A stretch of DNA of 24,218 nucleotides from a virus. Lineage: Duplodnaviria; Heunggongvirae; Uroviricota; Caudoviricetes. Where the stretch lies: IMG/VR virus record IMGVR_UViG_2537562231_000018, one strand, 5' to 3'. Numbering within the stretch: the stretch's first letter is position 1; every line of letters starts with the position of its first letter. A model generated the notes under the pieces. That model worked only from the letters and a program-made list of their open reading frames with translations, was not told the DNA's origin and did not search any database. Below are positions 2,110-2,576 of the stretch, one piece after another. A program made the translations under genes and the position numbers.

Positions 2110-2576
2110 TCACGGTATACACTGGGTACGGATATATTCCTGTGCTCCTTCCAGTTGCTTCTGCATTGCCATCAGCCGTTCTCTGAGGATGAAATAATCC
2201 CGTTCAGCGGCTTCTGCCAGTCGGGGACCGGTTGCATTATCCACGCCGGAGGTGACGGGGGCTTCACGCAAGGAACCGGACAGGTGGCGTTGATCCGCAG
2301 GCGCTTACGACCAACGGCAACATCAGCACGCAGAGTTTCATTTTCAGCTCTCGCATCGGCTAATTCCCTCGAGTATCTGGCATCAAGTGCAGCGACATCA
2401 CGCTGGCGTACCTGCATATCAGTAATTGTCACGTTCGCCAGCTTCAGCTCACTGGCTTTTTTACCGCGTTGCGCTTTGTAGGTAATGGCGTTATCGCGGT
2501 AATGATTCAGCCCCAGACTAAGCACACCACAGGCTACCAGCAGGACAATAATCACCACACACAGAACACGGTTCAT
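2110..2576 (-). CDS. Rz: Rz i-spanin, interrupted by an apparent 1-bp frameshift near 2262..2297
   Basis: N-terminal 100 aa ([50 protein letters not shown]) align with lambda Rz; the frame then runs into the Rz1 C-terminus. The Rz C-terminus ([52 protein letters not shown]) is intact in the -1 frame, ending at 2110..2112. Tracker ORF is 2172..2576. Confidence 0.75.
2172..2341 (-). CDS. Rz1: Rz1 o-spanin lipoprotein embedded in Rz, split by the same frameshift
   Basis: [15 protein letters not shown] (signal plus lipobox) from ATG 2341 runs to a stop at 2264..2266; the Rz1 C-terminus [32 protein letters not shown] is in the frame shared with the Rz N-terminus. Compare lambda Rz1 ..[32 protein letters not shown]. 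Confidence 0.65.

Follow-up and report, generated by a model that had tools for sequence, protein, structure and literature searches.

What does an open reading frame (ORF) that begins as one spanin gene and ends as another tell us about the prophage that carries it? At 2110-2576 of the window, by which we mean the whole stretch of DNA analysed here, an entire contig (24,218 bp) from the draft genome of E. coli 3431, the i-spanin gene Rz and the o-spanin gene Rz1 are broken into pieces, and a single ORF runs from the Rz start to the Rz1 stop. The locus raises the question of whether both lysis genes were lost together, whether their fusion has a function of its own, or whether one base is missing from the deposited sequence only.

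Anatomy of the Rz/Rz1 locus

The chimeric ORF of 134 aa lies on the minus strand at 2172..2576, with its ATG at 2576 and its stop at 2172. According to the ORF listing, three-frame translation and Pfam, it passes in frame from Rz codons 1-100 to Rz1 codons 28-61 and ends at the Rz1 stop; residues 1-100 of the product are Rz (MNRVLCVV...RLRINATCP) and the last 34 are the C-terminal part of Rz1. The Rz 5' part (codons 1-100; 2277..2576, minus) contributes an N-terminal transmembrane domain at residues 4-22 and the first coiled-coil region, and the Rz1 3' part (codons 28-61; 2172..2276, minus), which encodes the proline-rich domain, now stands in the frame of the Rz 5' part. The two remaining pieces occupy the other frames. 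The Rz1 5' fragment (2264..2356, minus) encodes the signal peptide, the lipobox VSAC with Cys20 and six mature residues, and ends after 30 codons, of which the last four are out of frame and read RFLA*. The Rz 3' part (codons 101-155 plus stop; 2110..2277, minus), with the linker, the second coiled coil and the C-terminal Cys, is stranded in the third frame. An earlier, sequence-only reading of this DNA had described the same arrangement, namely Rz for about 100 codons and then the Rz1 frame to the Rz1 stop, with the Rz C-terminus and the Rz1 N-terminus in the other two frames, and three-frame translation bears this out; its description of the product as a TM-anchored coiled coil tethered to the proline-rich Rz1 tail agrees with Pfam and hydropathy.

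The chimera matches the PF03245 (Rz) profile over positions 1-76 (E=2e-25) and also the PF06085 (Rz1) profile over positions 4-40 (E=8e-17), and the third-frame piece at 2110-2277 matches PF03245 over positions 75-125 (E=3e-17); by these matches the frame pieces are not due to chance. As deposited, neither spanin is encoded by one ORF: the i-spanin domain PF03245 is divided between two frames and can be followed end to end only after a base is restored, and the o-spanin (PF06085) has its signal peptide and lipobox in one frame and its proline-rich part in another. In frame numbers (start coordinate mod 3), Rz passes from 2 to 0 across the junction and Rz1 from 1 to 2, an equal shift of both genes, as a single 1-bp deletion requires. 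Rz1 is nested in the +1 frame of Rz with an equal offset on both sides of the deletion (2/1 upstream, 0/2 downstream). GenBank carries the chimera in a 128-aa version as 'endopeptidase [E. coli 3431]' (EFU95401.1). Rz residues 13-16 (window 2529-2540), inside the transmembrane segment, read L-V-A-C with Cys16 and fit the lipobox consensus, a resemblance within a transmembrane helix that is probably a coincidence.

Rz and Rz1 stand at the end of a holin-endolysin cassette. Directly upstream, on the same strand, lies a lysis cassette at 3064..4197 whose three genes are all intact: a class II holin (3991-4197; PF04971), the DUF1327/YdfR gene (3648-3986) and lysozyme R (3064-3597; PF00959). The ORF listing and Pfam give the order on the minus strand as holin, DUF1327/YdfR, lysozyme, two small ORFs and then Rz, and the order of the lysis cassette is common to the window, EDL933, ML35, D1 and 19KM2326N. 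In the DUF1327/YdfR gene, a tandem ACAGTA unit is one copy short (about 3925-3932) through an in-frame 6-bp deletion, so that the product has 112 aa, compared with 114 aa in all four close relatives.

One missing base and its allelic context

We aligned the locus to the 155-aa 'lysis protein' genes that are intact in EDL933, ML35, D1, 19KM2326N, CEC01302, E2863 and an O104:H4 Stx2 phage. This alignment to related prophages, which the sequence-only reading had proposed as a check, contains exactly one gap, between window 2277 and 2278, where the gene strand reads TGTCC^GGT in the window and TGTCCAGGT in the intact alleles. Intact alleles have CCTGG on the plus strand and CCAGG on the gene strand, and the window has CCGG (plus strand C2276 C2277 G2278 G2279, that is CC|GG). 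Against the second allele type (TGCTCCGG; TGCTCCGGT) the gap moves to between 2280 and 2281, and its placement is ambiguous within 2277-2281. Among the loci fetched, a gap relative to the window was needed in every full-length Rz alignment (66/66). One missing base between 2277 and 2278 accounts for all four Rz/Rz1 pieces. A single 1-bp change had been predicted near 2262..2297, at a site that is not a long homopolymer, and the alignment upholds both points, CC|GG being non-homopolymer.

The deletion falls inside a hypervariable patch of the Rz/Rz1 overlap (2211..2314, minus), as defined by alignment with the intact alleles. Upstream of the patch, the Rz 5' part equals the 155-aa genes of EDL933 and ML35 except for G38 in place of D38 (position 2464), and over 2050-2650 EDL933 is 98.7% identical to the window, with a single substitution outside the patch. 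Within it, the window has 10 private substitutions relative to the ML35-type allele and 6 relative to the EDL933-type, and from one site to the next matches now the ML35-type, now the EDL933-type variant. The hypervariable part of the gene in E. coli prophage alleles is the Rz/Rz1 overlap, where the Rz linker and the beginning of mature Rz1 are encoded; its flanks are nearly invariant.

With the base restored, Rz has 155 aa and matches PF03245 over positions 1-125 (E=3e-46), and Rz1 has 61 aa and matches PF06085 over positions 1-40 (E=1e-20). When the restored base is A, the 61-aa Rz1 is identical to WP_264752780.1 of other E. coli, and an alternative repair produces an Rz1 that also exists (EKK2334106.1 and three others). 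Since both repaired Rz1 variants exist elsewhere, the allele is a natural one minus one base. None of four variants of the reconstructed full-length Rz was present in the protein collection, so that the exact intact parent Rz allele was not found, and IMG/VR contained no exact copy of the window's allele, whether the extra base was included or left out. We also considered a collapsed-repeat consensus, in which a mixed pile-up of C-TCC--GG and -TCC-A-GG types could give TCCGG; this idea was weighted down because a natural Rz1 with the same mosaic exists and the same deletion is present in a clean assembly.

Distribution of this chimera and of others

The 90% protein cluster of the chimera has two members, the 134-aa sequence and EFU95401.1, both from the window's contig, and exact and 90%-cluster look-ups among ~15 billion proteins found the chimera in no other assembly. 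Searched against 5,426 complete E. coli genomes, 2050-2650 had a best match of 98.7%, and every top hit contained one extra base. In IMG/VR, the intact local form (...CACCTGTCCAGGT) occurred in 70 contigs and the deleted form in 0.

A search with the chimera retrieved dozens of other Rz-to-Rz1 fusions of 127-136 aa with both Pfam domains, nearly all of them near-singletons seen on single contigs. Examples include P0079-P0089, P0095, which is annotated as 'murein endopeptidase; DLP12 prophage', and the lambda-type P0102, P0121 and P0122. Their junctions are scattered over the Rz/Rz1 overlap, with those of P0079 and P0080 within about 10 nt of the window's. Because the Rz1 frame is open throughout the nested gene, any -1 shift in the overlap creates an ORF that begins as Rz and terminates where Rz1 does, and this mechanical fusion by nesting explains why database chimeras cluster at 131-134 aa. 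In light of this generic consequence of a -1 shift and the dozens of counterparts in databases, the chimera is not special. Many of these carry a lambda-type Rz on ~3.5-kb metagenome contigs (P0102, P0121, P0122 and ~20 similar ENA entries). They illustrate how readily errors give rise to such an ORF. We take this Rz to be lambda's own, and suspect that the entries derive from lambda DNA used as a control in long-read sequencing, with indel errors in the assemblies.

Error profile of the contig

To place the missing base among the other differences of the contig, window 1-4470 was set against four complete genomes with 99.2-99.4% identity to it (ML35, D1, Z1323HEC0010 and 19KM2326N). Among themselves, these relatives show 2-11 substitutions and 0-1 indel events. 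We counted 8 indel events private to the window, made up of seven 1-bp indels (at about 1454, 1746, 2278, 2905, 2971, 4353 and 4405) and one in-frame 6-bp deletion, and five of the seven are homopolymer contractions (1454 T4>3, 1746 A8>7, 2905 C3>2, 2971 T4>3 and 4405 A4>3). There are 15 private substitutions in the same interval, ten in the Rz patch and three at the contig end; about 5-6 lie outside recombination patches, and their ratio to the private 1-bp indels over these 4.47 kb is ~1. Real E. coli mutation spectra have an indel-to-substitution ratio of roughly 1:10, and a ratio near 1 is typical of homopolymer-prone sequencing. The contig looks, by this profile, like an error-prone draft assembly, and a biological origin is improbable for most of its private indels; the claim that the deletion is clearly biological does not survive this excess. 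The 2.7-kb stretch 4483-7209 is free of indels against a 99.4% identical relative, so the putative error rate is uneven. On the sequencing platform and coverage of strain 3431, the literature offered nothing usable.

Several other genes are affected by private indels, of which further 1-bp examples lie at about 7764, 10485, 18689, 20035, 21631 and 21929. A PerC-family gene (1256-1645, minus) is frameshifted at about 1454; in the relatives this gene has 315 bp and encodes 104 aa, and the window's 129-aa ORF matches only profile positions 1-66 of 90, its exact product occurring in no other assembly. A small conserved ORF (2731-2913) is frameshifted at its codon 2 (about 2905). The Q antiterminator gene (7428-8248, minus) has A6>A5 (gene strand, ~7764) relative to the otherwise 99.9% identical 19KM2326N allele, and is split into ORFs 7748-8248 and 7428-7817 (166 aa and 114/129 aa). 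The presence of 166-aa Q fragments in many assemblies was weighed as proof that the indels of the contig are real and was rejected, because the other fragments belong to 88-91% alleles, and for the window's Q there is an intact A6 allele with 99.9% identity. Those divergent Q alleles (88-91%; loci L012-L023) also have A5 and two open half-ORFs; they come from several assemblies of independent origin, short-read Logan ones among them. The Q motif is G AAA AAG, and slipping by -1 on AAG would give exactly the A6 protein (E W K K V R E...) again; the A5 form may be a pseudogene that has arisen repeatedly, or a site of recoding. Two indels, an extra A (21631) and C4>C3 (21929), break an ISEc23-like transposase gene into three ORFs, and one of the two is private to the window; the gene's 331-aa fragment is widespread but uninformative, given that many upstream frameshifts yield the same downstream ORF.

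The prophage is interrupted by two IS66-family insertions, at 20442-22973 and about 12630-14965, and may be truly decaying. The element at 20442-22973 adjoins the dicB region, is 99.5% identical to an ISEc23-annotated copy in HCP5S3_I4 and has eight private substitutions at multiples of three bases (21798-21900); the element at ~12630-14965 appears intact, with products of 134, 115 and 512 aa. Between Q and the holin, 4499-7428 contains an intact SASA-family (NanS-p-like) carbohydrate esterase gene of 616 aa. Stx phages use this site for stx and nanS-p, and no toxin genes were found in 4499-7428. In the 1-kb gap, relatives have only DUF3927 and a TerB pseudogene annotated.

The same deletion on a second Rz allele

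One of the other chimeras, P0078 (QHAV01000038.1, locus L024, 2917), has the same junction as the window and the same CCAGG>CCGG deletion. Its Rz allele differs, being of the Stx2-phage type with a protein 89% identical, and its phage has a different late region from the window's, with an antirepressor between R and Rz, bor and a P22-type portal. Over 8 kb, the only differences between QHAV01000038.1 and the complete genome closest to it are substitutions in clusters, an in-frame indel of 3 bp and this deletion, and no homopolymer indels were found in that comparison. The deletion in QHAV01000038.1 is probably real, and its occurrence without homopolymer indels suggests that real deletions do arise at the CCAGG site. 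It is mildly curious that the identical deletion recurs at a CCAGG motif on two allelic backgrounds. By our own estimate, ~12 independent chimera events over ~110 possible positions would give one shared position with a chance of ~0.5, and the shared junction position is not statistically remarkable. The CCAGG site is a Dcm (CCWGG) motif inside a short inverted repeat (the quasi-palindrome ACCTG-TC-CAGGT), and may be a mutational hotspot.

Discussion

We consider it rather probable, judging from the contig's own error profile, that the missing base at 2277^2278 is a base-calling or consensus error of the draft assembly. This explanation is ranked first because of the error-prone-draft signature, in which private 1-bp indels are in excess over substitutions and concentrated in homopolymers while the relatives agree with one another, and we infer that this particular indel belongs to the same class. 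It is also favoured by the confinement of the chimera to this assembly, by the other genes of the contig that are split in like manner, by the natural occurrence of the restored Rz1 and by the many near-singleton chimeras in databases. The locus is an ordinary lambda-type two-component spanin pair at the end of the holin/DUF1327/lysozyme/spanin cassette of a lambdoid prophage, with Rz as the inner-membrane i-spanin and Rz1 as the outer-membrane lipoprotein o-spanin nested in the +1 frame of Rz. The absence of one base from the deposited sequence has joined the Rz 5' part mechanically to the Rz1 3' part; with the base present in the organism, both genes would be intact and would act as lambda Rz/Rz1 do, bridging the periplasm and disrupting the outer membrane last. 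Against an artefact stand the site itself, CC|GG, which is non-homopolymer, unlike most of the other private indels, and the identical deletion on a different Rz allele in the clean assembly QHAV01000038.1. Both facts speak for a real loss-of-function deletion that rendered the two spanin subunits null at once in a decaying prophage, as do the two IS66-family elements that interrupt this prophage, and we regard such a deletion as possible, if somewhat doubtful: the chimera is confined to this assembly among ~15 billion proteins, and a private indel-to-substitution ratio of ~1, with homopolymer contractions predominating, is the setting to which this indel belongs a priori. Work on lambda leads one to expect cells that become spherical and do not lyse when Mg2+ is at millimolar concentrations. 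The predicted consequence of a real deletion is clear from lambda nonsense mutants, which are lysis-defective when Rz is interrupted anywhere up to codon 152 or Rz1 up to W46 (PMC5295617). In a working spanin, the C-termini link Rz to Rz1, and this complex disrupts the outer membrane once holin and endolysin have done their part (PMC5295617). Rz would lack the second coiled coil and the Rz1-contacting C-terminal domain after residue 100, Rz1 would be a lipidated peptide of ~10 residues (six mature beyond Cys20), and the chimera would be an inert by-product. By homology with lambda, a real deletion would leave both spanin subunits null; on induction, holin and endolysin would still act, and the outer membrane would not be disrupted.

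Two further explanations assign more meaning to the recurrence of the junction. It is barely conceivable that the arrangement is functional, either with an active chimera (as a single-chain spanin or lysis modulator) or with Rz and Rz1 recovered by programmed frameshifting. The same junction on two allelic backgrounds could point to selection or a hotspot rather than chance; however, the junctions of other chimeras are scattered and one such coincidence is expected about half the time, and carriers are rare, with 0 of 70 IMG/VR contigs and 0 of 5,426 complete genomes. Structurally, the chimera has a single hydrophobic segment, at residues 4-22; past residue 30, no 19-residue stretch exceeds a mean Kyte-Doolittle value of 0.45. 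A protein with just this one N-terminal transmembrane domain and nothing to anchor its distal end in the outer membrane could not span the periplasm in the way of a unimolecular spanin. No X XXY YYZ heptamer occurs within 40 nt of the junction (2240-2320), and lambda genetics point to a strict length requirement on Rz (PMC5295617). Among sequence features and distribution, we found no evidence of chimera function. Very unlikely, too, is a recurrent hotspot at which one deletion disables both spanin subunits on different prophage backgrounds and leaves a chimera that is selectable in lysis; if this were true, the chimera might, for example, keep phage or toxin inside spheroplast-like cells.

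Sequencing artefact or routine prophage pseudogene, the locus offers nothing new in kind, and both the nesting of Rz and Rz1 and the null phenotype of their truncation are already well described. A real deletion would make the prophage spanin-defective, with minor relevance for phage release from strain 3431. The broader lesson concerns annotation: a -1 shift in a nested gene pair produces a plausible fusion ORF with two Pfam domains, deposited in this case as an 'endopeptidase'.

Comparison with known spanin systems

Unimolecular spanins of the phage T1 gp11 type begin with a lipoprotein signal for the outer membrane and have their transmembrane domain at the C-terminus (PMC5295617). Like them, the chimera has elements of both membrane-anchored partners in a single polypeptide; in contrast to them, it has an N-terminal transmembrane domain, a soluble proline-rich C-terminus and no second anchor, and its one hydrophobic segment rules out its reading as a unimolecular spanin. 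A programmed frameshift or recoding site is likewise ruled out, by the lack of a slippery heptamer at 2240-2320 and of conservation of the arrangement in relatives. Other database chimeras resemble the window in having both Pfam domains in one ORF, but most have their junctions elsewhere in the overlap.

The closest counterparts are the intact E. coli alleles with the same flanking genes, WP_001082682.1 of EDL933 and WP_023307894.1 of ML35, D1 and 19KM2326N for Rz, together with WP_264752780.1 for Rz1, from which the window is set apart by the 1-bp deletion at 2277^2278, the mosaic 2211-2314 patch and G38 for D38. The allele is of this EDL933/ML35 prophage type, not lambda's own sequence. The resemblance to lambda lies in the architecture: in both, Rz/Rz1 come after the holin and endolysin genes, and Rz combines periplasmic coiled coils with a transmembrane domain at its N-terminus. 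Rz1, once restored in the window, is in both wholly embedded in the +1 frame of Rz, and its product has a signal peptide and a lipobox (Cys20) ahead of a proline-rich mature part. The difference is the one base missing in the overlap, as a result of which neither full-length protein is encoded as deposited. With that base restored, the locus would be a member of the lambda-type embedded spanin family, as defined by PF03245 and PF06085.
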